Source: Bacteroidaceae bacterium
Lineage (GTDB): Bacteria > Bacteroidota > Bacteroidia > Bacteroidales > Bacteroidaceae
NCBI GenBank assembly: GCA_024398695.1
Contig: JAKSIR010000001.1
Coordinates: forward strand, 15,767-79,766
Length of the DNA stretch: 64,000 nucleotides
Direction of reading: 5' to 3'
Below the pieces are notes generated by a model that worked only from the letters and a program-made list of their open reading frames with translations, made no database searches and was not told where the DNA came from. Position 1 is the stretch's first letter. Each line of letters starts with the position of its first letter. Shown here in pieces: positions 7,818 through 60,653 of this stretch. Both the position numbers and the translations under genes were made by a program.

Positions 7818-7837
7818 ATAAGACAATTAGCATAGAG

Positions 7838-9118: not shown

Positions 9119-9149
9119 CATTTTCTAACAAACACAAATTGCACTTGAT

Positions 9150-42077: not shown

Positions 42078-42485
42078 CTACAAAAGCGATACCTCGCTAA
42101 GGCGTGCGGCAAGAGCATGCAGGCCATTTTCAATCATCTGTCTCTGGGCATTTGAAGCGTATGCTCCTTTTTTCTTGTAATAACGTAACTGCGATGAGTT
42201 TACGCCCAGATAATTTGCCAGTTTGGACATGTTAAGCCAGTCAAACTCACAAAGAAATGCAGAAAGATCATAAATGAAATTCACTTTGATTTGATCAGGA
42301 AGCGGATGTTCAATGCCTTCCGCATCACATTCCTCAATAGCCTCGTCTATACTTTTCATGAAATCGTCTTTGGCTTCCTGCGCAGTATTGCCATAACCGC
42401 CAAGAAAGCTCACACCTATTTTTGCATCGGAGTAAACGGAAAACAAACCGTCATTACTCATCTCTATTGTCGCTTTTATTATCAT
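42078..42485 (-). CDS. hicB: HicB-family antitoxin with C-terminal HTH
   Basis: The 135 aa product has the N-terminal HicB fold pattern (MIIKATIEMSNDGLFSVYSD...GNTAQEAKDDFMKSIDEAIE) and the C-terminal HTH MSKLANYLGVNSSQLRYYKKG. It lies 5 nt downstream of hicA. Confidence 0.75.
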   Translation of the reverse strand: MIIKATIEMSNDGLFSVYSDAKIGVSFLGGYGNTAQEAKDDFMKSIDEAIEECDAEGIEHPLPDQIKVNFIYDLSAFLCEFDWLNMSKLANYLGVNSSQLRYYKKKGAYASNAQRQMIENGLHALAARLSEVSLL

Positions 42486-42489: not shown

Positions 42490-42648
42490 CTATATTTTGA
42501 TGCCAGCCTGTTTCACTTCCTTCGATGTATGTCTGGGAATAATCAGTATATCTCCGGAAGGAGTCTTCCATTTATCGTGGTTTCCTCCGCTTTTCCAATA
42601 ATAACATCCGTGTTGTTTCAACAACCGAATCAATTCCGATGTTTTCAT
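42490..42648 (-). CDS. hicA: HicA-family mRNA interferase toxin
   Basis: The ATG at 42648 gives the 52 aa product MKTSELIRLLKQHGCYYWKSGGNHDKWKTPSGDILIIPRHTSKEVKQAGIKI, the YcfA/HicA pattern. The upstream part of ORF 42490-42717 is AT-rich non-coding sequence. Confidence 0.8.
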   Translation of the reverse strand: MKTSELIRLLKQHGCYYWKSGGNHDKWKTPSGDILIIPRHTSKEVKQAGIKI

Positions 42649-42668
42649 GATATTGAATATAACAGCCA

Positions 42669-42676
42669 CAAATATA
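42669..42676 (-). promoter_or_regulatory. Bacteroides-type -7 box (TATATTTG) for hicAB
   Basis: The plus strand reads CAAATATA, which is TATATTTG on the minus strand. It lies 21-28 nt upstream of the hicA ATG. Confidence 0.35.
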
Positions 42677-42682
42677 ACACAA

Positions 42683-42712
42683 ATTCGTATTATATTACGA
42701 ATTCGTATTATA
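42683..42712. promoter_or_regulatory. candidate HicB operator: three ATTCGTA half-sites
   Basis: The sequence is ATTCGTA-TTATAT-TACGAATTCGTA-TTATA. A 7-bp inverted repeat with a 6-bp spacer overlaps the perfect 12-bp palindrome TACGAATTCGTA, immediately upstream of the hicA -7 box. Confidence 0.45.
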
Positions 42713-42735
42713 ATCAATAACCATTATTTTATTTT

Positions 42736-42768
42736 TTTGCAGGATATTGAGATTTATTCATATATTTG
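42736..42768 (+). promoter_or_regulatory. candidate Bacteroides promoter (-33 TTTG / -7 TATATTTG) facing the FHA operon
   Basis: TTTG at 42736-42739 and TATATTTG at 42761-42768 are separated by 21 nt. This would give a leader of about 370 nt before the ATG at 43151. Confidence 0.4.
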
Positions 42769-42780
42769 CAATTGTTCAGT

Positions 42781-43106
42781 TAGCCAAATATCCATATTCC
42801 TGGAATTACCGATTCGTTTGGATTGGCTATAGGAAATGGGTAAAGGGTTAGGTGAGCTAAAAACATACTGAAGACGTTACTTGACGTTTATCTTCTGTCA
42901 TCAAACTTGGCAATTTGAATTCTACAGAAAGAAACGGCAATGGGAGCGTCCACTAGTGATGACTATCCGGTCATCTGCGTCTTTATTTTGACGTGGAGTA
43001 ACTGTATATCATCCCTGACGTGGGCTAGCTGCCTTGCTTATCTCTGTAGAAGGCAGCCAAGGCCTGATGATGGGGTAAGCAACGGTATTACTCCCACGTC
43101 TTTTTT
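42781..43106 (+). ncRNA. candidate structured 5' leader or small RNA ending in a terminator-like helix plus U6
   Basis: The helices were read by eye. They are 42781-42794/42819-42829 (11 bp with a bulge), 42958-42963/42970-42975 (6 bp), and 43028-43035/43050-43057 (8 bp). A closing helix GACGTGGAGTAA (42990-43001) / TTACTCCCACGTC (43088-43100) is followed by TTTTTT (43101-43106). A second GACGTGG copy at 43017-43023 could pair alternatively. Confidence 0.35.
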
Positions 43107-43150
43107 ATTCATATAGAGTTCATATGGGAGTCTTGAACTATTAGTGACAT

Positions 43151-44614
43151 ATGAAATCTATTAAAATTGGTCGATCTCACAGCAATGACACCATTATTAA
43201 TGATGCAGTTGTTTCTTCTTCTCATGCTATCATAACGGTTTCGGATAAAGATGAAGCCTATATAGAAGATCTTGGCTCAAAAAATGGAACATATGTAAAT
43301 GGCACCAGAATTTCTCAAAAAACGAAATTATCATCTTCTTCAGTTGTCGTTTTAGGCAATCATTCTATTGATTGGAAAGAGATTATTCGCACATATAAGC
43401 CGAAAATCAATAAGCCTCAGATAAGTTTTCCAACAGACATAGTTGATAAGAAACTCATTGGACGGAATCCTAGTTCCCAAGTTCGGTTCTCTTTTGACGA
43501 TGTGTCAGACAAGCACGCCTATATATGTAAAAAATCTGATGGTTCGATTATTATTATTGACAATCTATCCACAAACGGAACCTTTGTAAATGGCGAGAAA
43601 GTAACGATGCCACGAGAACTTAAAAAAGGTGACATCGTAGTAATTTCAAACAGACATCCTTTTAATTGGGAAGCAATATACTCACCGAAAACCACATTCG
43701 AATATAGGCACTTAGCCATTGCATTCGCCATGGTAGCCATTATTGTTCTGTTATGCGTCTTTATACCTTGGAATACATTATTTGGAAAAAGTTGGACTAA
43801 GGTTTATGCTGAACATAAAAATGATGTTGTTCTTGTTTACGTAAAATCAGCATTCGTGTCAAAAGTCCAAGGTCATCTCTTGAGCGCATACCTTGATGGA
43901 TATGATGAATTAGACTATTGTACGGTCAATGAAGAGGGCAAAGTCATATCCGGCATTTCAAGAGGTTCTGGAACTGGATTCTTTATTTCAAACGATGGAA
44001 AGTTTCTTACTAACAGGCATGTCGTTGAAAATATATTCGAGGCAAAGGAAAATTGCGAAATTGTTAAACGGGCGGTGCAATCTGTTTTAGTTGAAAATGG
44101 ATTGAATAGTCTTGCTGCTGATGTTGACGTTGAGTATGAAATACTCAGTATTGGTATTGTACAAAATGACACTTATATCGACAATGAGAGCAATCTTATT
44201 CCTTGTACACTTATACGCATGAGTGACAATGAAGAGTTGGATGTCGCTTTGCTTCAAACCAACAACAAAAAGATTCCCACAGGTTCTTCGTTTGTCGATT
44301 TATCAAAATCAATACCAACAGAAAAACTGACTATTGGAACTGAGATTTGTACAATAGGATTTCCACAATCCTTCATAATAGGACAAACATCCGTTGGTCT
44401 TGAAGCAAACAATCAAAGTGGAGAAATCACACAAGAGCGCGGAACTTACCAATATGGACATAATATCACAATACATCAAGGAGCCAGCGGATCTCCAGTG
44501 TATGATAAAAAAGGACGTTTTTCGGGGATAATTGTTTCTGGATTCCTTGGAATTTCTCAAGGCTACAACCATGCAATTCAGCCTAAACCTGTAGTTGATT
44601 TTGTCGGAATATAA
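43151..44614 (+). CDS. FHA-FHA-TM-trypsin-like serine protease
   Basis: The 487 aa product has FHA1 at aa 1-75 (IGRSHSND...SSSHAII...DLGSKNGTYVNG) and FHA2 at aa 98-172 (IGRNPSSQ...SDKHAYI...NLSTNGTFVNG). A TM helix at aa 188-207 is followed by an S1/Trypsin_2-like domain with putative triad H290 (TNRHV), D364 (LDVALL) and S446 (GASGSPV). Confidence 0.8.
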   Translation: MKSIKIGRSHSNDTIINDAVVSSSHAIITVSDKDEAYIEDLGSKNGTYVNGTRISQKTKLSSSSVVVLGNHSIDWKEIIRTYKPKINKPQISFPTDIVDKKLIGRNPSSQVRFSFDDVSDKHAYICKKSDGSIIIIDNLSTNGTFVNGEKVTMPRELKKGDIVVISNRHPFNWEAIYSPKTTFEYRHLAIAFAMVAIIVLLCVFIPWNTLFGKSWTKVYAEHKNDVVLVYVKSAFVSKVQGHLLSAYLDGYDELDYCTVNEEGKVISGISRGSGTGFFISNDGKFLTNRHVVENIFEAKENCEIVKRAVQSVLVENGLNSLAADVDVEYEILSIGIVQNDTYIDNESNLIPCTLIRMSDNEELDVALLQTNNKKIPTGSSFVDLSKSIPTEKLTIGTEICTIGFPQSFIIGQTSVGLEANNQSGEITQERGTYQYGHNITIHQGASGSPVYDKKGRFSGIIVSGFLGISQGYNHAIQPKPVVDFVGI

Positions 44615-44646
44615 CGCTCATGTATTTTTAAAATAATTAAACAAAT

Positions 44647-45240
44647 ATGGCAACTAAAAAATGTATCAACGGACATCTTTATGATCCGGCTATCTATGGC
44701 GACAACTGCCCTTTCTGCCCATCTTCCAGTGGAGCGACAAAGGTAAATTCCGAAAACGAAGAAGAGAGTGGCACTCGTGTGCTAAATGGTGAAGAGCCCA
44801 CAAGGCCTACAGAAACTGTCGGATTTGAAGGAAACGAATCTTCCGGTGGTGCGACTGTAATACGCCATGTCGGCGGGCACACAACAGGAGAGACAGGATT
44901 AAGCGAAAATCGTCGTCTTGTCGGTCTTCTTGTCTCTTATAGTGCAGTGCCTACAGGAGAGGTTTATAAGGTATTTGAAGGACGCACTACAATAGGTCGG
45001 GACAGGACATGTGACATACCTTTTCCAAATGATAGCCACATGTCAGCGAAACATTTGCTTATTCAATATGTGGAAGCTAAAGGCTGTTTCAGAGCACAAG
45101 AGTTTGACAAAGGTTCTGCAAATGGCAGCTATGTTAATGGCCAGGTATATGTTCTTGGCGATGTGATTGACCTAAAGGACAAAGATGTGATTGTTATTGG
45201 TGGAACTAAGTTCGTTTTCCTTGAAATACCGGAATTTTAA
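44647..45240 (+). CDS. zinc-ribbon / Thr-rich linker / FHA adaptor protein
   Basis: The 197 aa product has an N-terminal C-x3-H...C-x2-C motif (KKCINGHLYDPAIYGDNCPFC), a disordered T/G/E-rich linker, and a C-terminal FHA domain (TIGRDRTCDIPFPNDSHMSAKHLLI...GSANGSYVNG). No TM segment is present. Confidence 0.75.
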   Translation: MATKKCINGHLYDPAIYGDNCPFCPSSSGATKVNSENEEESGTRVLNGEEPTRPTETVGFEGNESSGGATVIRHVGGHTTGETGLSENRRLVGLLVSYSAVPTGEVYKVFEGRTTIGRDRTCDIPFPNDSHMSAKHLLIQYVEAKGCFRAQEFDKGSANGSYVNGQVYVLGDVIDLKDKDVIVIGGTKFVFLEIPEF

Positions 45241-45250
45241 TAAAACAAAG

Positions 45251-47002
45251 ATGGAGCAATTTAATTATTGTCTTGTCGTAGGGCAAACCGATGTCGGAAG
45301 AAAACGTGCCGCCAACGAAGATAATATGGGCAATGCCATAACACAAAACGGTTTGGTCTCCGTTGTCTGCGATGGTATGGGAGGCCACGTCGGTGGTGCA
45401 ACGGCATCTAGAATAGCCGTTGATGCGATTCTTGAGAACCTTAAAGGTAGTTACTATGAAGACCCAAGAATAGCTATCGGTGAATCAATAGATATAGCCA
45501 ACAGAGCCATTTTGAATGAAGCATCTGCTCGACCTGAATTATCTGGAATGGGTTCTACTTGTGTTCTTCTGATTGTACGGAATGGGAAAGTATATATTGG
45601 CCACGTTGGGGACAGTAGGATATATCTGATACGTTCCAAGAGAATAATTCAGTTGACCAAGGACCATTCATATGTCCAAATGCTTGTTGACAGAAGAGAA
45701 ATCACAAAAGAACAAGCTGAACATCATCCAAGGAAAAACGAAATCACAAATGCTTTGGGAATTCCGAATATGTCTCCGGCAACTGTGGCAGATGATGCTA
45801 TTATTCCCGAAGCCGGTGACTGCTTTATTCTATGTTCCGATGGCCTGAGCGGAATGGTTTCGGACGAAGTCATCAATAAAGTGGTCAGTAGGCAAAGTGA
45901 ATTGAGTGCACAAGCACGAGTCGATCGCCTCATTTCTATTGCCAATGAGAATGGTGGTGTTGACAACATTACCGCTCAAATGGTGGAGTTTACAATTACA
46001 CCGGGATTTAATAAGCCGGAAAAAAAGATTCCGTTATGGCTGAAAATTTTGATACCGACAGTTGCACTGATGATGGCAGGACTCGGTTTATATTTCCTGA
46101 TAAATCACAATAAAGATGTCAAGGAAGAAGCCGAAGATAAAGCTTCCCAAGTTCAAACGATTGATAATCCAACGGATGTCCATATTCCTGATGCTATAGT
46201 ATTCAAAGCCAAAGAAGAATTTGTTACCATTGAATTTGGTGAGTCGTCAATAGTATTTAAACATAACGGGAAACAAATTATTACTGAGAATAACACATCA
46301 TTTAATCCTGATTCGCTGAAAGTTAATTCGCCTGATATTGATATAGTGCTTAAGGGTAAAAACAGAGTTTTGAAATTCACAGACAATTACCCTGGGGAAA
46401 TGGTGATTGCTGAAGTTTCATCTAATGAACCGCGTAAGATTTATAGATTCTATATCCCCGTTTCTAAAAGCCTTGAGTCAAATCCTATTCAGATCCCTAA
46501 AAAAGAGGAACCAACAGCAGGGGGAACACCAGCCATTAAAAATGTTCCTGTCGGTAAACATGAGATAATCAAAATCGAGCTTGGAGAGTATGCTTTAACG
46601 GATGGTGAAAAAATCCTTTTTGGCTATTCTGCAAAACCTTATATGAATATAAATAGAGGGAAAGATATCCCTGAAGTGAATGACAAACTTGACCACATTA
46701 TACTGGACGAAGTCAAAGATGCTGAAATTGTATTTGATGACAAGTTGTGGACCAAGAATTTCAATTCAGAAACGAAGCAATTGTCTTTCGTATATAATAA
46801 GAGGGAGCACAATAAGCGTGTTAAGTGTAAATTCGTTATCCCTTGTGTCAAAAAGGGCTCCAAGGATGAAGTGGTGTTGGAAATAACCCTAACTGTTATT
46901 GGTGAAAAAGAGGAAAAAGAGGTAAAAGAAGAGACGCCATACAATGGACAACAAGAGCCTAAGGATAGTATTCCTCAAGACTCTACCATGATTACAATAT
47001 AG
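45251..47002 (+). CDS. membrane-anchored PP2C Ser/Thr phosphatase with about 300 aa extracytoplasmic region
   Basis: The ATG at 45251 gives a 583 aa product. PP2C motifs are present: GQTDVGRKRAANED, VCDGMGGH, GSTCV, GDSRIY, LCSDGL and GGVDNIT. A TM helix at about aa 260-285 is followed by two similar beta-rich segments, ending ...IYRFYIPV and ...KCKFVIPCV. Confidence 0.85.
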   Translation: MEQFNYCLVVGQTDVGRKRAANEDNMGNAITQNGLVSVVCDGMGGHVGGATASRIAVDAILENLKGSYYEDPRIAIGESIDIANRAILNEASARPELSGMGSTCVLLIVRNGKVYIGHVGDSRIYLIRSKRIIQLTKDHSYVQMLVDRREITKEQAEHHPRKNEITNALGIPNMSPATVADDAIIPEAGDCFILCSDGLSGMVSDEVINKVVSRQSELSAQARVDRLISIANENGGVDNITAQMVEFTITPGFNKPEKKIPLWLKILIPTVALMMAGLGLYFLINHNKDVKEEAEDKASQVQTIDNPTDVHIPDAIVFKAKEEFVTIEFGESSIVFKHNGKQIITENNTSFNPDSLKVNSPDIDIVLKGKNRVLKFTDNYPGEMVIAEVSSNEPRKIYRFYIPVSKSLESNPIQIPKKEEPTAGGTPAIKNVPVGKHEIIKIELGEYALTDGEKILFGYSAKPYMNINRGKDIPEVNDKLDHIILDEVKDAEIVFDDKLWTKNFNSETKQLSFVYNKREHNKRVKCKFVIPCVKKGSKDEVVLEITLTVIGEKEEKEVKEETPYNGQQEPKDSIPQDSTMITI

Positions 47003-47020
47003 CACATTTTCACTAAAATT

Positions 47021-48376
47021 ATGAGTGGGTATTCAATAATCCGAGAAATTGGGAAAGGTGGAATGGGCTCCGTATTTGAAGCGAGGTCTCAATCCGGTGA
47101 GCGTGTCGCTCTAAAAATGATGAGTGCAAAAGCCGCCGCTTATCCGGACTATAAAGAGATGTTTGATCATGAGGTACATTCTTTAAGAAAGTTATCACAT
47201 CCTTCTATAGTCAACATTGTCGGTGAGCCATTTTCCGATTCGACAGGCAATTTATATTTGCCGATGGAATATATTGAAGGAAAAACAATCTCCCAAATAG
47301 TCCAAGATCCAGCCCATGGCCCTTACAAAGAAGACGAGGCATTGAGGATTTTTGATCAATTGCTCGACGTTTTCAGTTACATCCACAGAAATGCCTGTAT
47401 CCACAGGGATGTAAAGCCATCGAATGTTATGATTCACCCCAATGGCACTGTCTGTGTAATCGATTTTGGAATAGCCAAAGATAGCAAGACAAGCACGGGG
47501 AAAACCATTGGCAGAGTTGTCGGAACCGATGGATATATGAGTCCTGAGCAAGCAAATGGATTGAACATTGACCATAGGACTGACATATATTCATTGGGAT
47601 GCCTACTTCATTATATGTTGTCCGGCACACATGCTATTACGAAGAAATCTAACGATTATGAGACGATCTGTGCGATTCTGGATAACGAATTCCCACTTCT
47701 CTCAGATAGGGGAATCAAGGTATCTAAGCGAACGCAGGACGCAATACTTAAGGCTGTGAACAAGAATATGATGTTCAGGTTTCAAACGGCCGAAGATTTC
47801 AAATACGCATTACAGTCCTCATTGTCTCCTGATCAATATGTGGTGACAGTTGGCCGTTCCGGATGTGATATCAATATGCATGGAGAATATGTAAGCAAGC
47901 GTCATCTAGACTTGATATTTACAATCCAAACCGGTTCTACTCGTGTTGTAATAAGAGATAGAAGTACTAATGGAACCGGGGTTGATGGACGATTGGTAAA
48001 ACAATCATCTTTTGAGTTTTCTTATGGGATACAGACTACAACTTTCCCTGTCATTATGCTTGCGGGTTTACCTGAGTACACTCTTGACTGGGATGAAATT
48101 AAGACGGTTCTTTTCGAGAAGATGGGTCGTCCCACAACAGTTCTTCCGCCAGAAGGAAATGGGGAACTTCCCCCTCCTCCTCTTCCACCAACTGTGATTG
48201 ATGAAATGACGATTGGCTACGGCATATTATCATTTATAATCCCAATCGTTGGATGGATTCTGGGCAGCAAATGGAGGATTTCATTCCCCAAAAAATCCAA
48301 GATGGCCAACAAGTTAGCATGGTACGGATTCCTCTTTAATCTGTTCTCTCTATTCCTTTCTAAGATAATCAATTAG
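47021..48376 (+). CDS. Hanks-type Ser/Thr kinase - FHA - Pro-rich - two-TM anchor
   Basis: The 451 aa product has GKGGMGSVF, VALKMM, HRDVKPSNV, DFGIAK and GYMSPE. An FHA domain lies at aa 272-350 (VGRSGCDI...VSKRHLDL...DRSTNGTGVDG), followed by PPPPLPP and the C-terminal hydrophobic pair IGYGILSFIIPIVGWILG / LAWYGFLFNLFSLFL. Confidence 0.88.
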   Translation: MSGYSIIREIGKGGMGSVFEARSQSGERVALKMMSAKAAAYPDYKEMFDHEVHSLRKLSHPSIVNIVGEPFSDSTGNLYLPMEYIEGKTISQIVQDPAHGPYKEDEALRIFDQLLDVFSYIHRNACIHRDVKPSNVMIHPNGTVCVIDFGIAKDSKTSTGKTIGRVVGTDGYMSPEQANGLNIDHRTDIYSLGCLLHYMLSGTHAITKKSNDYETICAILDNEFPLLSDRGIKVSKRTQDAILKAVNKNMMFRFQTAEDFKYALQSSLSPDQYVVTVGRSGCDINMHGEYVSKRHLDLIFTIQTGSTRVVIRDRSTNGTGVDGRLVKQSSFEFSYGIQTTTFPVIMLAGLPEYTLDWDEIKTVLFEKMGRPTTVLPPEGNGELPPPPLPPTVIDEMTIGYGILSFIIPIVGWILGSKWRISFPKKSKMANKLAWYGFLFNLFSLFLSKIIN

Positions 48377-48382
48377 CTTCAT

Positions 48383-48883
48383 ATGAAAACTATTACAATT
48401 GGGAAATTGAATTGCGACATAATAATACAGGATAATTATGTCAGCCGTAAACATGCCGAGATATCCCTTATTGATGGACAGTATGTTTATCGAGATTTAA
48501 GCAAAAATGGCACAACCATTAATGGGCGTGTATATCATAACGAAAAAGTCGTCATTGCACCTGGAACACCTATATTTTTAGCCAATAAGGTGCCTCTACC
48601 TTGGCCTCAGGTATTGATGCTCCTTCCAAATTCGGCCATTAAAGTTAATAATAACAACTGCATAGATGAAAGTACAGTCCCTCAACCCAGACCTCAAGAT
48701 GACAGCATCGGCGCTGGATGGGGGGTACTGTCATTTGTTTTCCCAATTGTTGGTTTCATACTCTATTTTGTTTGGAAAGATTCTGAACACAACAAAGCGA
48801 AACAGGCGGCAAACATTGCTTGGATCAGTATTGCTATCAGCTTTGTAATAGGATTTATCGGTGGTTTAGCCGGAGCTCTTTAA
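48383..48883 (+). CDS. FHA domain protein with two-TM C-terminal anchor
   Basis: The 166 aa product has an FHA domain (IGKLNCDIII...VSRKHAEI...DLSKNGTTING) and the anchor IGAGWGVLSFVFPIVGFILYFVWKD...IAWISIAISFVIGFIGG. The anchor is paralogous to that of the preceding kinase. Confidence 0.8.
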   Translation: MKTITIGKLNCDIIIQDNYVSRKHAEISLIDGQYVYRDLSKNGTTINGRVYHNEKVVIAPGTPIFLANKVPLPWPQVLMLLPNSAIKVNNNNCIDESTVPQPRPQDDSIGAGWGVLSFVFPIVGFILYFVWKDSEHNKAKQAANIAWISIAISFVIGFIGGLAGAL

Positions 48884-48904
48884 TAAGATTAAATACGAGA
48901 TGTT

Positions 48905-51900
48905 ATGATAGGAAAGGAAATTCTTAATTACAAAATTACCTCTCTCATTGGAAAGGGAGGAATGGGAAGTGTATATTTGGCCCAAAACAAATATATACAG
49001 CAACAAAAAGTTGCAATCAAAATCATTAATGCAAATATGATTAATGATTTTACACGTCAAACTTTTGCAAAAGAAGCTGATAAACTGGCGCGACTCAATC
49101 ATCCAAATATTATTCACTTCATCAACTATCATATTGATGATGAGGGTAATATATACTTGATTATGGAGTATGCTGATGGATATAGTTTGGAAGACTACAT
49201 TAAAAACGTCTCTGGGCTCATCGTTGAAGAGAAAATCTGTTCGTTCTTTGAGCCGCTGCTTGACGCATTCGATTATGCACATAAGAACAACATTATTCAC
49301 AAGGATATAAAGCCAGCGAACATTATTATTACAAAAGAAGGGACTCCTAAAATACTTGATTTCGGAATATCGGAACTTTTGAGTGAGAATGGATCCGATG
49401 CTGAAAAGGATGTGATAATGGGTACACCTTCATATATGAGCCCTGAGCAGGTTAAGGGATTATGCTTAGATCAGCGCTCTGACATATATTCACTTGGCGT
49501 TCTTCTACACCAGATGCTTACGGGCAATCCACCATATGATACAACTACTCTGACAGAGCATGAAATCTACAAGCACGTTGTTGATGATGAACTTCCGAGA
49601 ATGAAAGCATACTACAAGTATGTTTCTGATAAGGTTCAAGCAATTGTTGACAAAGCAACAAATAAAAAACCAGAAGCACGATATGCTTCTTGTGCGGATT
49701 TTAAGAAGGCGCTACATAACGCTATTTACCCGCCAAAAGTATCGAAATGGGCGAAAATCAGCATTGCGTCAGCAGCTGCTATTATAGTTGGTCTCAGTAT
49801 ATTCATTTGGGATTATAATAGAGTAAAAGTCTCTTATTATAAGGATTATGCAGAGCAATGGAGCATACCACAAGGTATTGGAAAAATATCAGGTTCGGAG
49901 AGAAGTCATACCCATAGAATGTATCGGTTCGAATCGAAGCACTACAAACTCCAGAGGGTTTCTCATGTGAATAGTATAGGCACAATTATTCCAGATGGAG
50001 AATCTGAAAGATATGAGCGGCCTCTTGATATGATATTCTATTATAACGATGATAATCGTCTGAATCGCATTAAGGTTCGAGACCATAATGGACAGGTTCT
50101 TTATATTAAGTCATTTAATGAAAAGCTGAATACCGTCATCTTTCAATTCGATGATGAATACGGCACAGAAAAGACAATAGGAAGCCAAACAGTCGGCTAT
50201 ACTCATGCCTTCGATGAAAATCAAGACAAGAGCAAAATATCCAGATACCTTCTCGAATACGATGATAAAGGCTTTATAAAAACTCTACGATATGCTGGAT
50301 TCCAAAACATAATTGTCGGTGATGCAGATGGAATATATGGGAAACAGTATGTTCGCGATAGCAAGGGTCGAGTAATAGAGGAATCATATCTAGCATTCGA
50401 TGGCTCACCTAAAGCCACCAAATGGGGTATGGGTAAGAAACTGTTCTCTTACGATGATGATGATAATTGGATTTGCTCCAGGTATCAGACAATCGATGGT
50501 GAACCATGTTTAGACGATTCGGATGGAACGGGTATGTGTGAAAATGAATATGATAAATATGGAAATGCGATTGCTCAATATTTCAAAAACGCAGATGGTC
50601 ACCTTATGATCACTGGGAAACAAGGAACAGCAGGAGTTAAGACGGAATATGATGAACACGGATATATTTTCAAACAGTCTTTTATTGGGATTGATGGTAA
50701 TATAGAATTTTCCGCAAAACAAGGATTTGCATCTTGTATTACAGAATGTGACGAGAATGGGTTCTTCAACAAAATGGAATTTCTGGATGCTTCAGGAAAC
50801 CTTTGCCTTACGGATAACGGCAACTCCAGCGTGAAAATGGTCAACGATTCCAAAGGAAATGAACTGGAAAGATGGTTTTATAATTTAAATGGAGAGTTAG
50901 TACTCAATTCGGAAGGATATGCGGGAATTAAAAGTGAATATGATTCATTGGGACATCCAATTAAAACCACTTTCTATGGAACAGATGGCGAACCTTGTGA
51001 ATTATCCTCAGGATATGCTGGATGGATGTGCGAATACGATAAAATGGGAAATGTTATCAAGCAATCATATCTTGACGCACAAATGCTTCCCACACAAGAT
51101 GAAAACGGTATTTGTTTATTTACTATGGAAAGGGACTTACGTGGTAATGTTACAAAATATCTGTTTTATAACGAAAAAGGTGAGCCAACATTGAGCCGTG
51201 AAGGTATTGCCGGTATGGAATTCTCCTACAACGATGGAGGAAATGAAATTGAACGTCGCTTCTTCAACATAAAAGGGGAACCAACCAAAGGGTATTTGGG
51301 ATATGCTAGAAGAACCCATACATATGATGAAATGGGACACGAATTAAGTGACAGGTATTATGGACTGGATGGAAACCTAATCCTTGTTGATGGCATTGCT
51401 GGTACCGATTATAAGGTTGACAGCCATGGCAATATTGTAGAAGATATGCCTGTAGGATTAGACCAGAAGCTTGCATCAGGAAGATTATTAGCACGTTATA
51501 AGTACGATAACAAGGACAACATTATTGAGTACGCTTTGTTCAACGCATCAGAACAACCAGCGACAAATAGTTATAACTATCATAAGTATTCACAGAAATT
51601 CAACTCCAGAAACCAATGTATTGAAATCTGTTATTACAATACCAAGGGAGAACTTACTAACTATAATAATTACAATTATTGCATTCAGCGGACAGAATAT
51701 AATGAAAAAGGCCAATCAACAAGGATATCATATTTTGACAAAAACAACAATCCCGCTGTTTACTATGGAGATAATGATGGTGGTTATTCAAGCCTATCAT
51801 CCGAATATGACAATTACGGTAGAGTAGTACGTCAGTTCTTCTTTGACAAAAACGGTGCCCCTACGGATCCCAAAATAATGGTGCCTGAAGGAGCCGTTCA

Positions 51901-52684
51901 ATATGATAAACGTGGAAATCAAATTTATCTTGCATCTCTTGATGGGAATGGTAATCTGATAATGAACCCTAAAACGGGATGGTCCTTCGTCAAGAGCGAA
52001 TATGATAATCATGACAACCTTTTATGGTCTGCCTATTTTAATGACAAGGAAAAGCCAATACGTAGCAAAGATGGATATCATAAGATTGTGTACACTTATA
52101 CCGATGCTGATATGCCGGAGAGCGAGTCATATTATGACACCGATGGTAACGCTATGATTGTAAATGGCTATCATAAAGAACAATATAAGTATAATGATAA
52201 CCAACAATGCATTGAGATACAATACCTTGGCACGAAGGGAGGGCAAGTGAATAATGCATATGGATTCTCAAAAATAGTTTTCACCTACAATAGTGATCAG
52301 ACGAAACGAGATAGGAGGCGTTTCAATGCTTCCGGGACAATGCTGCTTCAGGAACAGTATATAAATGGGGAGTGGGTCGCTATTAAGAATTGGCAGAAAG
52401 ATGTTTCCGATCTTGCTGATGAGTTGCCCGTTGATCTTGGCGATGAGGCTGATAATCTCGTAATCGAATCAATCAAAATTGTCAGTTCAACACTCGTTGA
52501 AATCGTGATGACAACTCCAAAATCAAAATACGATATGGCTAATAGTACTATCGATACTTATTGCCAAGTTCTTGAGGTATTTACACAAAATATCAAGGAA
52601 CAACTCGAAATTCCTCGAAGTGTTATAGTAAAAGGTATCTTGAAAGATACGAAGGGACGTATTTTATCAACCATTAAGAAATAA
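48905..52684 (+). CDS. Hanks-type Ser/Thr kinase - TM - giant YD-like repeat ectodomain
   Basis: The 1259 aa product has GKGGMGSVY, VAIKII, HKDIKPANI, DFGISE and SYMSPE. A TM helix lies at aa 283-302, followed by about 820 aa of tandem repeats and a 107 aa non-repeat C-terminal domain. Confidence 0.88.
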   Translation: MIGKEILNYKITSLIGKGGMGSVYLAQNKYIQQQKVAIKIINANMINDFTRQTFAKEADKLARLNHPNIIHFINYHIDDEGNIYLIMEYADGYSLEDYIKNVSGLIVEEKICSFFEPLLDAFDYAHKNNIIHKDIKPANIIITKEGTPKILDFGISELLSENGSDAEKDVIMGTPSYMSPEQVKGLCLDQRSDIYSLGVLLHQMLTGNPPYDTTTLTEHEIYKHVVDDELPRMKAYYKYVSDKVQAIVDKATNKKPEARYASCADFKKALHNAIYPPKVSKWAKISIASAAAIIVGLSIFIWDYNRVKVSYYKDYAEQWSIPQGIGKISGSERSHTHRMYRFESKHYKLQRVSHVNSIGTIIPDGESERYERPLDMIFYYNDDNRLNRIKVRDHNGQVLYIKSFNEKLNTVIFQFDDEYGTEKTIGSQTVGYTHAFDENQDKSKISRYLLEYDDKGFIKTLRYAGFQNIIVGDADGIYGKQYVRDSKGRVIEESYLAFDGSPKATKWGMGKKLFSYDDDDNWICSRYQTIDGEPCLDDSDGTGMCENEYDKYGNAIAQYFKNADGHLMITGKQGTAGVKTEYDEHGYIFKQSFIGIDGNIEFSAKQGFASCITECDENGFFNKMEFLDASGNLCLTDNGNSSVKMVNDSKGNELERWFYNLNGELVLNSEGYAGIKSEYDSLGHPIKTTFYGTDGEPCELSSGYAGWMCEYDKMGNVIKQSYLDAQMLPTQDENGICLFTMERDLRGNVTKYLFYNEKGEPTLSREGIAGMEFSYNDGGNEIERRFFNIKGEPTKGYLGYARRTHTYDEMGHELSDRYYGLDGNLILVDGIAGTDYKVDSHGNIVEDMPVGLDQKLASGRLLARYKYDNKDNIIEYALFNASEQPATNSYNYHKYSQKFNSRNQCIEICYYNTKGELTNYNNYNYCIQRTEYNEKGQSTRISYFDKNNNPAVYYGDNDGGYSSLSSEYDNYGRVVRQFFFDKNGAPTDPKIMVPEGAVQYDKRGNQIYLASLDGNGNLIMNPKTGWSFVKSEYDNHDNLLWSAYFNDKEKPIRSKDGYHKIVYTYTDADMPESESYYDTDGNAMIVNGYHKEQYKYNDNQQCIEIQYLGTKGGQVNNAYGFSKIVFTYNSDQTKRDRRRFNASGTMLLQEQYINGEWVAIKNWQKDVSDLADELPVDLGDEADNLVIESIKIVSSTLVEIVMTTPKSKYDMANSTIDTYCQVLEVFTQNIKEQLEIPRSVIVKGILKDTKGRILSTIKK
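49900..52360 (+). repeat. about 20-25 tandem repeats of roughly 30 aa (protein level), consensus G-[YI]-A-G-x4-EYD-x2-GN-x-I-x3-[YF]-x3-DG-x-P
   Basis: Example units include YAGIKSEYDSLGHPIKTTFYGTDGEPCELSSG, YAGWMCEYDKMGNVIKQSYLDAQMLPTQDENG, IAGMEFSYNDGGNEIERRFFNIKGEPTKGYLG and YARRTHTYDEMGHELSDRYYGLDGNLILVDG. The count is by eye and the DNA-level identity is low. Confidence 0.8.
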
Positions 52685-52688
52685 ATGC

Positions 52689-53573
52689 ATGAAACGATTA
52701 TTATTTAGTTTGATTTGTTGTTTTTTACTTGTGTTCTCCTCCAAAATTGCTGCAGAAGATAACAAATTATCATCTGAGCAACTTGCATTGCGTTCAGAGG
52801 TAGTAACGTTTCTAAAAGAAGAAGGGTTTATGCCTGATATTGACTCTGACGGAGATATCGTATTCAAGATTGAAGGGACAAAATATATTGTCTCCATTTC
52901 TGATACTGATGAAAATCCTATGTATTTATCATTTTATGCATCTTTCAGCTATCCATCCGATTACACTTCTGATGTAGTTCTTATGGCATCAAAAGAACTA
53001 AATAGATACAAAGGTGTAAAAGTAACTTGCTATGATAGTTCATTCAGGATTTCATGTGACTTATATCTGCGAGATGCTGAATCCTTCAAGGAATCGTTCT
53101 ACAAAGTGAAATCTCAAATGTCATTAGTGCAGTCTGATATTCTAGATGAATGTAAAAATGTATCATCCGGTTTGGGGTCAATTTCCATATCTGAAATCCC
53201 TTTTATTATTACTAAATTGGAGGTTGCAAATATTGATAATGACGGAACAATAATACATGACTACGGTTCTACTATATATGAATATAAAACGCAGTATTTG
53301 AAACCCCGTATCACAATCAAACCCTACAAAACTTCCGGGTCTGTAAAATTATACATCAAACTGTATAAGAATAACGAATTGAAGAAAGGCTCATCTTCCC
53401 CTGATGATTATTCTTATTCTGATACAATAGAAATCAATGGCTCGTCTAGTCAGACATTTGTGCTTTCGGGATGGGGATCCGATACTGCTGGACATTGGCC
53501 TGCCGCAACATACAGATTTGAAATTTGGTATGGAACTTACTGTCTTGGTAGCAAGACATTCAAGGTTATCTAG
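52689..53573 (+). CDS. secreted two-domain protein (YbjN-like N-domain + beta-rich C-domain)
   Basis: The 294 aa product has the signal peptide MKRLLFSLICCFLLVFSSKIAA. The N-terminal half (VVTFLKEEGFMPDIDSDGDIVFKIEGTKYIVSI) resembles the YbjN / T3SS-chaperone-like family, recalled from memory. The C-terminal half is beta-strand rich and ends YRFEIWYGTYCLGSKTFKV. Confidence 0.55.
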   Translation: MKRLLFSLICCFLLVFSSKIAAEDNKLSSEQLALRSEVVTFLKEEGFMPDIDSDGDIVFKIEGTKYIVSISDTDENPMYLSFYASFSYPSDYTSDVVLMASKELNRYKGVKVTCYDSSFRISCDLYLRDAESFKESFYKVKSQMSLVQSDILDECKNVSSGLGSISISEIPFIITKLEVANIDNDGTIIHDYGSTIYEYKTQYLKPRITIKPYKTSGSVKLYIKLYKNNELKKGSSSPDDYSYSDTIEINGSSSQTFVLSGWGSDTAGHWPAATYRFEIWYGTYCLGSKTFKVI

Positions 53574-53574
53574 T

Positions 53575-54825
53575 ATGAGAAAACTTGTTATCTTGCCAGC
53601 AATCTCTCTTTTTCACTGCTTATTTTGTTATGGGGCGGAGAAAACCGGCAAAAAACCGGAACCATACAAGTTTGAGACAATAATTGAGAATCCTGTTACA
53701 CCTGTAAAGGACCAAGCATCAAGCGGTACCTGCTGGTGTTTTAGTGGCATCTCATTCATAGAGTCTGAAATACTCCGTACTACCGGTGAAGAATACGATT
53801 TGAGTGAAATGTTTGTTGTGTCAAATGCTTATTATGATAAAGCACTTAAATACGTCAGACTACATGGTAATCTTAGTTTTGGTCCAGGAAGTTGTTTTAA
53901 TGATGTTCTATACGTGCTCAAGAATTATGGTATTGTGCCGGAGAATGAAATGACAGGACTGAATTATGGCACTACGATGCATTTTCATTCTGAGATGGAT
54001 GAGATACTGAAAGCCATTGTTTCAGTTATTGTCAAAAATCCAAATCAAAAAATTACCCCCGCTTGGAAAAGGGGATTCAGGGCTATGACAGCTGCATATT
54101 TAGGCGAAATTCCAACATCTTTTATAGCCAACGGAAAAGAATATACGCCAAAAAAATATATGGAATCGCTGGGTATAGATTTGGATAATTATGTTGATTT
54201 GTCATCCTGGACTTATTCCCCATTTTATGAAACAATAGCCTACGAGGTTCCAGACAACTGGCGTGGTATCAATACAATGAATGTCCCCATTGACGATATC
54301 ATTACCATAATAGATAATGCTTTAGAGAACGGATACACTGTTGCGTGGGCAAGTGATGTGAGTGAAGATGGCTTTACATCAACCGGAATCGGTGTTGTTC
54401 CAGATATGGAAAAAATTATTAATGGTAGCGATTATACTCGTTGGATAAAAGACAATAATACAGAAGAAACTCTGCCGATTTTCTCCATAACACCTTGTCC
54501 AGAATTGAAAATAACTCAAGAAATGCGGCAAGATGCATTTGATGACTACTCAACAACTGATGACCATGGAATGCATATATATGGGAAAGCAAAAGATCAG
54601 AATGGTACAGAATACTATATTGTTAAGAATTCGTGGGGAAAAGCAGGCTCATATAATGGCATCTGGTATGTTAGCAAGGAATATGTACGCTATAAAACGA
54701 CAAACATTGTCGTAAACAGGAATGCTATTCCGATTGAAATTCGTGAGAAATTCAATTATTACAACAATACAGTGAATTCGGTAACCGTCCAATTTCCACG
54801 TCTTGACGCGCCTTCGCGCATCTGA
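53575..54825 (+). CDS. secreted C1-family cysteine peptidase (aminopeptidase C / bleomycin hydrolase-like)
   Basis: The ATG at 53575 lies 1 nt after the upstream stop and begins a signal peptide (MRKLVILPAISLFHCLFCYG). The catalytic Cys motif is DQASSGTCWCFS, and the His/Asn region is DDHGMHIYG...IVKNSWG. Confidence 0.8.
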   Translation: MRKLVILPAISLFHCLFCYGAEKTGKKPEPYKFETIIENPVTPVKDQASSGTCWCFSGISFIESEILRTTGEEYDLSEMFVVSNAYYDKALKYVRLHGNLSFGPGSCFNDVLYVLKNYGIVPENEMTGLNYGTTMHFHSEMDEILKAIVSVIVKNPNQKITPAWKRGFRAMTAAYLGEIPTSFIANGKEYTPKKYMESLGIDLDNYVDLSSWTYSPFYETIAYEVPDNWRGINTMNVPIDDIITIIDNALENGYTVAWASDVSEDGFTSTGIGVVPDMEKIINGSDYTRWIKDNNTEETLPIFSITPCPELKITQEMRQDAFDDYSTTDDHGMHIYGKAKDQNGTEYYIVKNSWGKAGSYNGIWYVSKEYVRYKTTNIVVNRNAIPIEIREKFNYYNNTVNSVTVQFPRLDAPSRI

Positions 54826-55179: not shown

Positions 55180-56514
55180 ATGAAACACAGGCTCCATTGT
55201 TTTGCTTTTCTGACGTTGGCGGTTCTGCTCTTTGCCTCGTCATGCAAAAAGGAAACGTTCGACGGTCCTCTGCCGAAAGTCCACATAATAGCAACTGGTG
55301 GAACGATTGCCGGAACAAGTACCGACATAGGATACGAAGCCGGGAAAGTTTCCATTGAAACCATCTTGCAGGCAGTGCCGGAATTGACCAGGTACGCAGA
55401 GTTGGACTATGAGCAGTTCTGCAACATCGGCTCACAGGATATGAGCGAAAGTATCTGGCTTCCTCTTGCCAAGCGGGTCAATCAGGTCCTTGAGAGCGGA
55501 AAATATGATGCAGTCCTGATAACCCACGGTACCGACACTATGGAGGAAACCGCCTTCTTCTTGAATCTTACCATTCACAATCCCAAGCCGGTCATTCTTG
55601 TAGGCTCCATACGCCCTTCCGATGCAGCCGATGCAGACGGACCGGCTAGTTTATTGAAAGCCGTTCAAACTATAGTGAAGCCGAATGCCGTAGGGAAAGA
55701 AGTAATGTGCTGCCTGGGAAGCAAAGTCTATGAAGCGGGTGCGGCATTCAAGAATGACACGCATTCCCTGGATCCCTTATCCGAAACGTCAGTGGACTGG
55801 TACCTGCCACATAATGCCGACACCGGCTTTTTCATTGACAATCTGGAAGAACTGCCTGAAGTTGGAATTGCGTATGGTTATGGAAGCAACTCAACCGTTG
55901 CCTTGGAGGCATTCGTCAATGCAGGATACAAAGGCATTGTATTTGCCGGAGTAGGAGATGGAAACCTGAGTCAGGCAGCCCTTGATTTTGCTGCGCAGGC
56001 TGCGAAAAATGGAGTAATGATTGTCCGTTCATCCCGCGTCCCTTATGGCGGGGTTTATACAGAAGGAGGTGAGGTTGATGATGAAAAGCTGGGCTTTATC
56101 GCCTCAGGTAGCCTGAGCCCTCAGAAGTCCAGGATTCTGCTTATGCTTGTTCTCTCTGCTACCCGGGATATTGACGTAATACGCTCATATTTCCGGCAGG
56201 GTGTTTTTGAATTTCAAAATTTCCACACCACTCATAAACCGGCTTTATCACAATATGCACGCCATCCTTGTCAACTTCCTCATATACATGGTCTGTCAGC
56301 AACAGAAGGTCATTGCACTTGGTCTGCCTATGCGCCAGCAGAAGTCCGTCAATTTCTCTTTTGCGCGTCTTCTCATTTGAGATGTCGTAGGAAACCTGAA
56401 TGCACTGCAACACCCTGTTGCCGTCGCACACCACAAAATCGCACTCTCCGGAACGGTCTTTCAAATAATATACATCCCAACCTTCCAGTTTGCATTTCCG
56501 CAACAAATGGCTGA
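55180..56514 (+). CDS. ansB: periplasmic L-asparaginase II with about 100-codon read-through tail
   Basis: The product has a signal/lipobox region (LLFASSC) and the motifs HIIATGGTIAG, ITHGTDTMEET and LSPQKSRILLMLVLS. Homology ends near aa 340 (about nt 56200), yet the frame stays open to 56514, antisense to the next gene. Confidence 0.8.
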   Translation: MKHRLHCFAFLTLAVLLFASSCKKETFDGPLPKVHIIATGGTIAGTSTDIGYEAGKVSIETILQAVPELTRYAELDYEQFCNIGSQDMSESIWLPLAKRVNQVLESGKYDAVLITHGTDTMEETAFFLNLTIHNPKPVILVGSIRPSDAADADGPASLLKAVQTIVKPNAVGKEVMCCLGSKVYEAGAAFKNDTHSLDPLSETSVDWYLPHNADTGFFIDNLEELPEVGIAYGYGSNSTVALEAFVNAGYKGIVFAGVGDGNLSQAALDFAAQAAKNGVMIVRSSRVPYGGVYTEGGEVDDEKLGFIASGSLSPQKSRILLMLVLSATRDIDVIRSYFRQGVFEFQNFHTTHKPALSQYARHPCQLPHIHGLSATEGHCTWSAYAPAEVRQFLFCASSHLRCRRKPECTATPCCRRTPQNRTLRNGLSNNIHPNLPVCISATNG

Positions 56515-57505: not shown

Positions 57506-57557
57506 ATCAGTCAATTGATTTTGAGATGCAAATATATTGAATCCCCCCAAAATAAAA

Positions 57558-57694: not shown

Positions 57695-57698
57695 CGGG

Positions 57699-57786
57699 CG
57701 AATGAAAGGGGGTGCTCCCGTAAGGGGGCTGAGATTATACCCTAGGAACCTGATTCGGTTAGTACCGGCGTAGGGAGTTGACTTCG
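57699..57786 (+). promoter_or_regulatory. TPP (THI-box) riboswitch
   Basis: The conserved elements are present in the correct order: GGGGTGC (57708-57714), CTGAGA (57729-57734), ACCCT, ACCTGAT (57748-57754) and TACCGGCGTAGGGA (57763-57776). Confidence 0.9.
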
Positions 57787-57822
57787 AAAACTTTTTATCC
57801 CTTTTCATTTTGTAAATACAAC

Positions 57823-60033: not shown

Positions 60034-60653
60034 ACATTCTGGAATATATAAGCAGTCAGTTCACCGGCATGGACTTCTGGGACGCCATCCAGACAGCAGG
60101 ACTGATTCTGAGTTTCATCTATCTGTGGCTTGAGTTCCACCAGAAACCGCTCATGTGGGTTGTCAGCGCCATGTGCTCCATGATCTATGCCAGCGTGTAT
60201 TTTCACAGCAAGATATACGCCGACATGGCATTCAGCTGCTTCAACATATGCATGTGCGCATACGGCATGATGAAATGGCTGAAAGGCACAAGAGCCCGCC
60301 ACTCCAGGGAAATAACCTACCGCCATTTCCGCGGCCGTGAATTGGCGTGCGTTCTCGGTACATCGGCCCTGATATGGGCTGTCATATTCTGCATCCTCAG
60401 ATTCCTGACCGATTCGCCCGTGCCCGCGCTTGATGCCCTGACCACCATGCTCAACATTGTGGGCACATGGGTACTGGCACAGAAAATCATCGAAGTATGG
60501 GGAATCTGGTTTCTTGTCAATAGTTTTTCCATTTACATTTACTGCCGGCGGGGGCTGCACATTTCCACCATCCTGCTGTACGGCTTCTATCTGGGGGCAT
60601 CGGTCTACGGCTGGATAAAGTGGAAGCGCAAAGGCACTCTCCTATCAAAATAA
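60030..60653 (+). CDS. pnuT: PnuC-family transporter, thiamine-type
   Basis: The 207 aa product has 7 hydrophobic segments and the PnuC-like W/Y-rich motifs LWLEFHQKPLMWV and GIWFLVN. Its riboswitch context matches the Bacteroides OM-receptor plus PnuT thiamine module. Confidence 0.75.
   Translation: MNILEYISSQFTGMDFWDAIQTAGLILSFIYLWLEFHQKPLMWVVSAMCSMIYASVYFHSKIYADMAFSCFNICMCAYGMMKWLKGTRARHSREITYRHFRGRELACVLGTSALIWAVIFCILRFLTDSPVPALDALTTMLNIVGTWVLAQKIIEVWGIWFLVNSFSIYIYCRRGLHISTILLYGFYLGASVYGWIKWKRKGTLLSK

Follow-up and report, generated by a model that had tools for sequence, protein, structure and literature searches.

A Hanks kinase/PP2C/FHA membrane signalling operon and a structured leader RNA candidate in uncultured Bacteroidales

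Among the described bacterial phospho-threonine signalling systems, the actinobacterial fhaA-fhaB-pstP-rodA-pbpA-pknA-pknB cluster of Mycobacterium and Corynebacterium is the closest match to the locus reported here, an operon of eight genes (g1-g8) at positions 43151-54825 of a 64,000-nucleotide stretch of contig JAKSIR010000001.1 from a Bacteroidaceae bacterium (the whole stretch is hereafter the window). Both have two tandem Hanks kinases, the distal one with a transmembrane (TM) helix and a large ectodomain, a PP2C phosphatase with a TM helix and an extracytoplasmic tail, and a soluble as well as a membrane-anchored FHA protein, all in one operon. Five of the seven actinobacterial components have architectural counterparts here, g2 corresponding to FhaA, g5 to FhaB, g3 to PstP (PP2C-TM-ectodomain), g4 to PknA and g6 to PknB (kinase-TM-ectodomain). 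Nevertheless, the cluster is a Hanks kinase/PP2C/FHA membrane signalling operon that no paper found in full-text searches, no Rfam family and no PADLOC system describes, in agreement with an original prediction made from the sequence, and public annotation gives its products generic names only.

That prediction had listed eight closely packed genes on one strand, and an open reading frame (ORF) scan of the window reproduced them, with intergenic gaps from g1 to g8 of 32, 10, 18, 6, 21, 4 and 1 nucleotides (nt):

43151-44614, plus strand: g1, first gene of the conserved module; two FHA domains, one TM helix (residues 188-206) and an S1 serine protease domain (Trypsin_2)
44647-45240, plus strand: g2, soluble adaptor; zinc ribbon (C-x3-H ... 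CPFCP), then a linker in which threonines are conserved, then an FHA domain
45251-47002, plus strand: g3, PP2C of the Stp1/IreP class, followed by a TM helix (about residues 266-284) and some 300 residues of fast-evolving periplasmic tail
47021-48376, plus strand: g4, RD-type Hanks kinase followed by FHA and anchored by a hydrophobic hairpin at the C-terminus
48383-48883, plus strand: g5, FHA domain and a two-TM hairpin
48905-52684, plus strand: g6, Hanks kinase (HKD, non-RD in the window copy) with a TM helix (residues 283-301), an array of about 26 beta-hairpin repeats of the Rhs/YD type and, at the C-terminus, an alpha/beta domain of about 100 residues
52689-53573, plus strand: g7, signal peptide, TY-chaperone/YbjN-like domain (about residues 29-160) and Ig-like beta-sandwich (about residues 170-294)
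53575-54825, plus strand: g8, signal peptide and C1-family aminopeptidase C; a clade-specific accessory gene

Pfam agrees with the domains that had been proposed: two FHA domains and Trypsin_2 in g1, FHA in g2, PP2C in g3, Pkinase and FHA in g4, FHA in g5, Pkinase in g6 and Peptidase_C1/C1_2 in g8, which makes five FHA domains across the operon, with no family assigned to g7. A hydropathy scan likewise supports a TM segment or signal-like N-terminus in seven of the eight products, with one TM helix each in g1, g3 and g6, a hydrophobic hairpin in g5, signal-like N-termini on g7 and g8, and one segment above threshold in g4, the C-terminal half of which is homologous to the g5 hairpin.

The module differs from the actinobacterial cluster in its FHA-FHA-TM-S1 protease, YD-repeat ectodomain, periplasmic chaperone-like protein and FHA domain on g4, and in being an accessory island instead of a core locus. 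The protease gene stands at the first position, in place of RodA and PbpA, and no SEDS glycosyltransferase (RodA/FtsW) or class B penicillin-binding protein (PBP) was found by Pfam among the eight products, or in the gene lists of eight related loci. PASTA repeats are absent as well, since the NCBIfam model NF033483 (PknB_PASTA_kin) reaches 261 of the 450 bits required and its alignment is confined to g6 kinase residues 9-280, while the FhaB/FipA equivalog NF049868 gives 95.5 bits for g1, 34.7 for g5 and 16.6 for g2 against a cut-off of 125. The best NCBIfam matches of the operon are FhaB_Rv0019c, Stp1/IreP and PknB_PASTA_kin, and only Stp1/IreP lies above its cut-off (g3, 238 bits against 230); the FhaB, TagH, PknB-PASTA, HtrA and MarP models all fall below.

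A second likeness is to the threonine-phosphorylation pathway of the type VI secretion system (T6SS; PpkA/PppA/Fha1-TagH), with its membrane Hanks kinase bearing a periplasmic sensor, PP2C eraser, FHA reader and envelope-spanning output. However, Pfam finds here no vWA domain of the PpkA type, the TagH model TIGR03354 gives 42 and 33 bits against a cut-off of 120.25, and no Tss genes occur in the flanks of the window or of related loci. The original prediction had judged that neither of these two contexts fits, nor the vWA-ternary conflict systems, and all three judgements were borne out, although its description of the last was imprecise: these are MoxR-vWA-VMAP systems, in which a MoxR AAA+ ATPase and a vWA protein are joined by VMAP or iSTAND as third component (Kaur et al., 2020, PMC7159879). 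No MoxR, vWA, VMAP or iSTAND domain was found in the eight products (Pfam) or in their neighbours. In PADLOC, the PD-T4-6 and mad6 kinase models match g4 and g6 (up to 245 bits) and the protease part of RT-Protease_XI matches g1 (45 bits), in each case through generic kinase or protease domains only; g2, g5, g7 and g8 have no matches, and no match at the level of a system was found.

Active sites, FHA domains and ectodomains

Like HtrA/DegP and MarP, g1 is an S1 serine protease predicted on the periplasmic face of the membrane, anchored as in MarP. Unlike HtrA/DegP it carries no PDZ domain (Pfam), and the DegP/HtrA NCBIfam models give 25-26 bits against cut-offs of 416-450, every NCBIfam protease model remaining well under its threshold. 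By profile search its nearest solved relatives are DegP, MucD and HtrA1, followed by V8/Spl proteases, with MarP as a weak match. The triad H290/D364/S446 is invariant among 15 homologues of 41-89% identity. In our literature searches, two cytoplasmic FHA domains on the N-terminus were found described for no characterised protease.

The remaining enzymes also keep their signature residues. In g3 the RxxNED, DGMGGH, GDSR, DG and DN motifs, which include the metal-binding aspartates of PP2C, are invariant across 19 orthologues; the PP2C-TM-tail layout is kept in all 19, with tails of 210-360 residues that fall into seven unrelated BLAST clusters. Across 19 orthologues, g4 shows no variation in its G-loop, VAIK lysine, HRD, DFG or SPE motif. 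g6 retains the catalytic Asp (HxD) and DFG, and the residue preceding the Asp varies among 116 full-length family members (HKD in 59, HRD in 45, HQD in seven, HCD in five), therefore this kinase family drifts between RD and non-RD forms; its catalytic loop lies at window positions 49310-49330 (plus strand), and the HRD arginine, invariant in g4, is not conserved across the g6 family (P0121-P0240). Residues 23-393 of g8 align with the solved aminopeptidase C structures 5wdk and 3pw3 (E = 3e-114) in the Protein Data Bank (PDB); the QxxxGTCW region with the catalytic Cys can be read in this alignment, in which the His and Asn were not checked individually, and this similarity assigns g8 to the generic Bacteroidales aminopeptidase C (peptidase C1B). 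Closer alignment thus left standing the earlier claim that the catalytic motifs are intact and not dead, and judged by their motifs all enzymes of the operon look active. As a whole, the cytoplasmic catalytic domains are far better conserved than the periplasmic parts.

Regarding the FHA domains, four of the five in the window carry the canonical GR...SxxH...NG residues, and the fifth, that of g5, has GK in the window copy and GR in most orthologues. g5 shares about 28% identity with the C-terminal, FHA-hairpin half of g4 and is thus its paralogue. g2 shares with the GarA/OdhI switches and with FhaA-type adaptors a threonine-bearing N-terminal linker followed by a C-terminal FHA domain, a layout that in GarA/OdhI belongs to proteins switched by kinase phosphorylation of their own N-terminal threonines. 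Three threonines of the g2 linker, located before the FHA domain, are each conserved in at least 90% of orthologues, as is visible in the orthologue alignment that also shows the conserved C-x3-H...CPFCP zinc ribbon. This N-terminal zinc ribbon and the lack of an evident metabolic partner set g2 apart from GarA/OdhI, whose OdhI model gives 19 bits against a cut-off of 200.

The repeats of g6 have a period of about 32-33 residues and occupy roughly residues 370-1150. The ectodomain family comprises 587 clusters at 90% identity, with a kinase on every full-length one among those listed. An AlphaFold2 model built from 31 sequences (predicted local distance difference test, pLDDT, 86.5; pTM 0.71) shows the succession of beta-hairpin repeats and terminal alpha/beta domain given above. 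The top 42 PDB matches of this model in Foldseek are T6SS Rhs cores, teneurins and Tc-toxin BC shells, with one exception, the mosquito salivary gland protein SGS1; in alignments of about 735-1336 columns these matches reach E = 3.6e-31 to 1.5e-12, and despite the low E values their TM-scores are 0.16-0.33 and their root-mean-square deviation (rmsd) exceeds 16 A, so that they speak to the repeat type rather than to the overall shape of the ectodomain, be it a closed cocoon or an open spiral. The repeat type is therefore Rhs/YD, with several homologues matching Pfam RHS_repeat PF05593, and the YD-like repeats of the original prediction are upheld. The modelled g6 thus has the beta-hairpin repeats of the Rhs/YD shells (T6SS Rhs effectors, the Tc toxin TcB-TcC and teneurins), with which Foldseek aligns it at E = 1e-31 to 1e-16 along about 950 columns, and it resembles teneurins in being a type II membrane protein with the shell outside. 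Unlike Rhs proteins, it has a kinase at its N-terminus and lacks the DPxGL autoprotease motif, a C-terminal toxin, PAAR, VgrG or a secretion domain; a regular-expression search for DPxG[LIVM], the motif that ends Rhs cores, found it in none of the 116 full-length family members.

g7, proposed earlier as YbjN-like, was modelled at pLDDT 85.6 as two domains. In Foldseek the N-terminal one resembles YbjN (6vu7, TM-score 0.64, rmsd 3.9) and the type III chaperone SchA (4g6t, TM-score 0.62), in line with the original assignment, and among 27 orthologues PF22551 (TY-Chap1) is matched in 15 (best E = 2e-5) and PF10722 (YbjN) in six; the TY-chaperone superfamily has been described as peptide-binding (PMC9503650). 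The C-terminal domain is, by model and Foldseek, an Ig-like beta-sandwich of the PDE6-delta/UNC119/RhoGDI kind. Sequence searches of PDB chains with the g6 ectodomain, g7 and the g3 tail returned nothing useful, and an internal comparison detected no similarity of g7 to the g6 C-terminal domain or the g3 tail.

Conservation, mobility and genomic setting

The architecture of g1 defines a family of 940 clusters (90% identity) at E < 1e-5, and the FHA-FHA-TM-Trypsin_2 layout is present in all of the top 120 clusters that Pfam covers in full. Clustering of the protease domain at 50% identity leaves 44 representatives when E <= 1e-30 is required and 304 when the limit is E <= 1e-10, and the majority are 480-530 residues long with the protease domain at the same position; in a sample of these representatives, FHA(1-2)-TM-Trypsin_2 was confirmed down to about 30% identity. 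One version of g1 occurs on more than 300 metagenomic contigs.

Loci were collected from genome representatives (Sangeribacter, Phocaeicola and two Prevotellaceae), from exact-protein look-ups and from a metagenome scan with a protease-only profile. When the full g1 alignment was scanned against a genome collection, generic FHA matches saturated the result and only four full-length relatives emerged, so that the genome-wide taxonomic range is under-sampled. The neighbourhood survey applied tblastn with domain-split queries to all loci, near-identical ones being merged into 28 lineages that include Bacteroidaceae, Muribaculaceae and Prevotellaceae, with protease identities down to about 30%, and presence was counted only in lineages whose DNA extends far enough to be evaluable. 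On this basis g2 was found in 25 of 26 lineages, the g3 PP2C in 23 of 24, the g4 kinase in 22 of 22, g5 in 16 of 21, the g6 kinase in 21 of 21, the g6 repeats in 20 of 20, and the N-terminal domain of g7, following g6, in 18 of 20. The order g1-g2-g3-g4-g5-g6 is conserved in all evaluable lineages except one (L115). The genes are thus no chance juxtaposition, and the conserved unit is g1-g6 plus g7. The expectation of a co-conserved eight-gene unit holds for these genes, with g5 absent in five lineages, and fails for g8, which follows g7 only in the clade of the window; elsewhere GH97, FtsZ or a LysR regulator comes next.

Upstream and downstream genes differ among lineages and are mostly housekeeping. 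In the window the operon is a low-GC island (GC content 0.35-0.44, 0.38 overall, against 0.52-0.55 in both flanks), and in most lineages the module lies below its upstream flank (e.g., 0.39 vs. 0.48, 0.40 vs. 0.49, 0.41 vs. 0.51), by 7-14 GC points in the window and in L004, L083, L088, L090, L104 and L117; in L005 and L086 it is close to host GC. This pattern fits repeated acquisition followed by amelioration. Phage cargo and plasmid cargo were both considered and discarded, given that the g1 protease domain has no relatives in IMG/VR and neither the protease nor the repeat domain has any in PLSDB. Because the order is constant, the flanks vary, the GC content is low and plasmid relatives are lacking, the sequence record describes a chromosomal accessory module, moved or reshuffled as a block.

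Other FHA-rich clusters exist in Bacteroidales. Two of them (L023, 483-14524; L007, 1-18600) contain six to eight FHA proteins, a PP2C and two or three Hanks kinases, one of these kinases with MORN repeats, and no g1-type protease; that of L023 has in addition two stand-alone RHS-repeat proteins. The association of YD repeats with kinase, PP2C and FHA components therefore recurs in more than one form.

As for the surroundings of the operon in the window, the left edge of the low-GC island holds, on the strand opposite to the operon, a HicA toxin gene (42490-42648, minus strand; Pfam E = 7e-10) adjoined by a HicB-like ORF (42078-42485, minus strand) with no Pfam match. On the right, the stretch 55180-57550 is of intermediate GC (0.45-0.50). 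There, an asparaginase ORF (55180-56514) extends about 100 codons past the end of its own Pfam domains and overlaps by about 355 nt the convergent gene of an AAA_14/DUF4143 ATPase (56159-57550, minus strand), an overlap that may reflect a lost stop codon or a second insertion. Further on, at 57698-60653, a thiamine pyrophosphate (TPP) riboswitch (67 bits) precedes a TonB-dependent receptor gene and a PnuC-family (NMN_transporter) gene in what looks like a thiamine uptake locus. At 35230-36663 (minus strand) there is a CotH-family kinase homologue (Pfam E = 2e-52) with housekeeping genes on both sides, and near it two ABC-F paralogues (36663-38429 and 40298-42073).

A structured RNA candidate upstream of g1

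The original prediction missed a pseudoknotted leader RNA upstream of g1, whose features in the window are the following:

42736-42768, plus strand: promoter-like motif of the Bacteroidetes type (TTTG-N21-TAnnTTTG), about 100 nt upstream of the leader
42872-43108, plus strand: leader RNA, ending 45 nt before the g1 ATG
About 42872-42890, plus strand: 5' hairpin
42898-42902 with 43066-43070, plus strand: 5' and 3' strands of pseudoknot 2 (PK2)
42906-42911 with 43056-43061, plus strand: pseudoknot 1 (PK1), the 5' strand ('block 2') pairing with the apical loop
43014-43108, plus strand: 3' domain with helices H1 (43018-43024 with 43093-99), H2 and H3
43056-43061, plus strand: apical loop of H3, GCCAAG
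43101-43106, plus strand: U-run

The promoter-like motif is a consensus match alone, one of four in the 64-kb window where 1.4 are expected by chance. The 376 nt between it and g1 fold with a z-score of -6.45 relative to shuffled sequence, strong folding against shuffles is likewise seen in several distant lineages, and the aligned leaders of distant lineages share sequence blocks. RNAalifold resolves the 3' domain into three nested helices followed by the U-run and returns no consensus structure for the 5' half.

A first covariance model, built from five copies, brought new copies in L088, L003, L105, L118, L096, L104 and L114, and a second-round model added L083 and L097. All plus-strand matches in the 735 kb searched lie upstream of g1 in the orientation of the operon, in 12 lineages. 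Besides that of the window, copies include those of L100 (1536-1772), L006 (9666-9934), L090 (9601-9868), L088 (5934-6192), L003 (~420-703), L105 (~8689-8926), L118 (~488-739), L104 (~8070-8232), L114 (~7690-7848), L096 (~8640-8853) and L083 (~9290-9497). The distance from the end of the leader to g1 is 45-133 nt in most lineages. A few have a small intervening ORF, which is a LytTR ORF in L088 and Big_7-like in L083/L096.

Two kinds of evidence bear on the structure. In the model-based alignment, which is fitted to the covariance model and hence leans towards structure, 92.8% of the cells of the nested helices are paired against 82.2% in shuffles (0/500), with compensatory changes at 16 of 25 pairs and slid controls at 44-54% paired. 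The pseudoknot helices, in turn, are independent of the covariance model. For PK1, the apical loop has an exact complement of 6-8 nt located 55-150 nt upstream in all 14 copies, in seven sequence versions such as CTTCGCA/TGCGAAG, CTTGGC/GCCAAG (window), TCTAGCA/TGCTAGA and ATTTGGCG/CGCCAAAT. For PK2, pairing joins the internal loop on the 3' side of the apical stem to the 5-9 nt immediately 5' of the PK1 block, the 5' strand being given first in ACTTCTTGA/TCAAGAAGT and GACAACCTG/CAGGTTGTC. Tested on a structure-naive MAFFT alignment of spliced segments, these helices have 80.3% of cells paired compared with 62.6% in shuffles (0/500) and 33-53% in slid controls, with double changes at 13 of 16 pairs. 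Moreover, G-U pairs are common and plus-strand scores far exceed those of the minus strand, which places the structure at the RNA rather than the DNA level.

Rfam gives no match at gathering threshold over the whole window; at E <= 1 it gives none on window positions 42650-43200 except a spurious opposite-strand miRNA match (E = 0.18), and none on L100 1400-1850. Altogether, the covariation makes the leader a well-supported candidate for a new structured RNA, specific to this operon in the DNA searched. Since its basal helix and U-run look like an intrinsic terminator, an attenuator or riboswitch-like role is the simplest reading, and with two covarying pseudoknots and this terminator-like end it would be a candidate riboswitch or protein-controlled attenuator; it may also be an independent small RNA.

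In L083 the leader region, about 385 nt, is duplicated as direct repeats (6812-7195 and 9124-9501, 81% identical) that flank a LysM-domain gene and a gene of unknown kind; the related L097 (~8280-8670) has a single-copy leader without these two genes, which suggests recombination between the repeats. An invertible, phase-variable promoter had been suspected from opposite-strand model matches in L083 and L096 and was rejected, both loci being collinear; the minus-strand matches reflect the near-symmetry of the hairpins, and the window contains only weak inverted repeats. The conserved 5' blocks were also compared by eye with an extracytoplasmic function (ECF)-type promoter; their spacing of 18-21 nt is too variable to bear this out.

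Mechanistic readings and biological meaning

We favour, tentatively and somewhat short of holding it probable, a phospho-threonine signalling module that is complete in itself, crosses the inner membrane, travels among Bacteroidales as a unit of six or seven genes and is coupled through its FHA domains to a periplasmic protease. Kinases and PP2C need cytoplasmic ATP and substrates, and FHA domains read the products; the single TM helices would therefore give a periplasmic location to the protease domain of g1, the repeat array of g6 and the tail of g3, together with g7 and g8, and leave the g4 and g6 kinases, the g3 PP2C and all five FHA domains in the cytoplasm. A relay to the periplasmic protease is plausible. 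Since the protease and the FHA domains would lie on opposite faces, any control of this kind would run inside-out, and the proposal of the original prediction that the FHA modules recruit or activate the protease would have to be read as a step across the membrane.

In such a module, the receptor kinase g6 would report the state of its own periplasmic YD-repeat array and, together with the anchored g4 docked via its FHA domain, would phosphorylate threonines, the conserved ones of the g2 linker and those of the kinases themselves being candidate sites. The PstP-like g3 would erase these marks, and the FHA domains of g1, g2, g4 and g5 would read them and assemble a membrane complex in which g2 might be a phospho-switchable adaptor and g5 an optional scaffold or competitor. 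Through its FHA pair, g1 would transmit the phosphorylation state to the far side of the membrane and so alter how its protease domain clusters or how active it is; in the periplasm, g7 would be a likely partner or substrate. The pseudoknotted leader probably gates operon transcription, through its terminator-like basal helix and U-run.

Several observations weigh against this scheme. The protease could act upstream of the kinases instead of being their output. L115 (982-2613) has a full FHA-FHA-TM-protease but no other part of the module, the next gene encoding an outer-membrane-like protein, and in L127 (307-1539) a single-FHA variant of g1 stands alone beside MBOAT genes; the kinases are therefore no strict requirement for the protease. 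About half of the lineages lack the leader, with none found in L004, L086, L108 and L094 by a model search run without filters, and the low structural scores of the g6 ectodomain count here as well.

An alternative that we consider unlikely is that the operon is the Bacteroidales counterpart of the actinobacterial/Firmicute PknB/PstP/FhaA/FhaB regulator of envelope growth and division, its kinases acting mainly on products of other loci, for example proteins of cell-wall synthesis or division, and its protease being an envelope-remodelling output that replaces RodA/PbpA. The one-to-one architectural parallel of g2-g6 with FhaA, PstP, PknA, FhaB and PknB speaks for it, as do the identities of the best NCBIfam matches, and MarP-like tethered S1 proteases acting on cell-wall hydrolases are a known precedent, though the MarP sequence match is weak. 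However, PASTA repeats, RodA and PBP are missing and the NCBIfam scores, except that of the PP2C, stay below their cut-offs. Furthermore, the low-GC island, flanks that differ from lineage to lineage and named matches that come only from metagenome-assembled genomes (MAGs) or uncultured bacteria suggest an accessory rather than a housekeeping trait.

The order of events might also be reversed, with the g1 protease processing the g6 ectodomain, the g3 tail or g7 to generate a signal to which the kinases respond, and the FHA domains of g1 only holding the protease near its substrates or giving feedback. Protease, repeat array, PP2C tail and g7 would indeed share the periplasmic face, the chaperone-like domain of g7 could present an extended peptide, and g1 can exist without kinases; nevertheless, both FHA domains of g1 are conserved with canonical phospho-threonine-binding residues, which argues that g1 receives phospho-information and does not only send a signal, and we find this order quite improbable.

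The same low standing is given to a conflict or defence module, in which the YD receptor would detect phage attachment, a competitor effector or envelope damage and the kinases would unleash the periplasmic protease to destroy an invader component or sacrifice the cell: the horizontally moving low-GC island adjoining the HicA/HicB pair, the fast evolution of the periplasmic parts, the existence of kinase-based defence systems whose PD-T4-6 and mad6 models match both kinase domains, the resemblance of the g1 protease to that of RT-Protease_XI and the conflict association of Rhs-type folds and TY-chaperones in other systems are in its favour, but the PADLOC matches are generic with none at system level, the effector is constant with no effector swapping, phage contigs and plasmids (IMG/VR, PLSDB) hold no relatives, and the flanks in other lineages are housekeeping genes, not defence islands.

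Returning to the phospho-threonine module coupled to a periplasmic protease, its parts were not found described together in the papers and catalogues searched, the membrane separating the protease from the phospho-threonine readers. A broader claim, that it represents a new class of envelope signalling in which a teneurin-like receptor kinase and inside-out FHA control of a periplasmic protease are joined by a double-pseudoknot, riboswitch-like RNA sensing a small molecule or protein related to the system, seems to us rather doubtful.

Bacteroidales dominate the gut microbiota, and to our knowledge Hanks-type kinase signalling is almost unexplored in them. The module is widespread in uncultured gut and rumen Bacteroidales, where an array of the Rhs/YD type appears to be used as a receptor ectodomain instead of a toxin container. 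If the favoured reading is true, it would show clearly, in a bacterium, that Ser/Thr phosphorylation can control proteolysis in the periplasm in an inside-out manner, and the ligand of the leader RNA could reveal what the whole system responds to.

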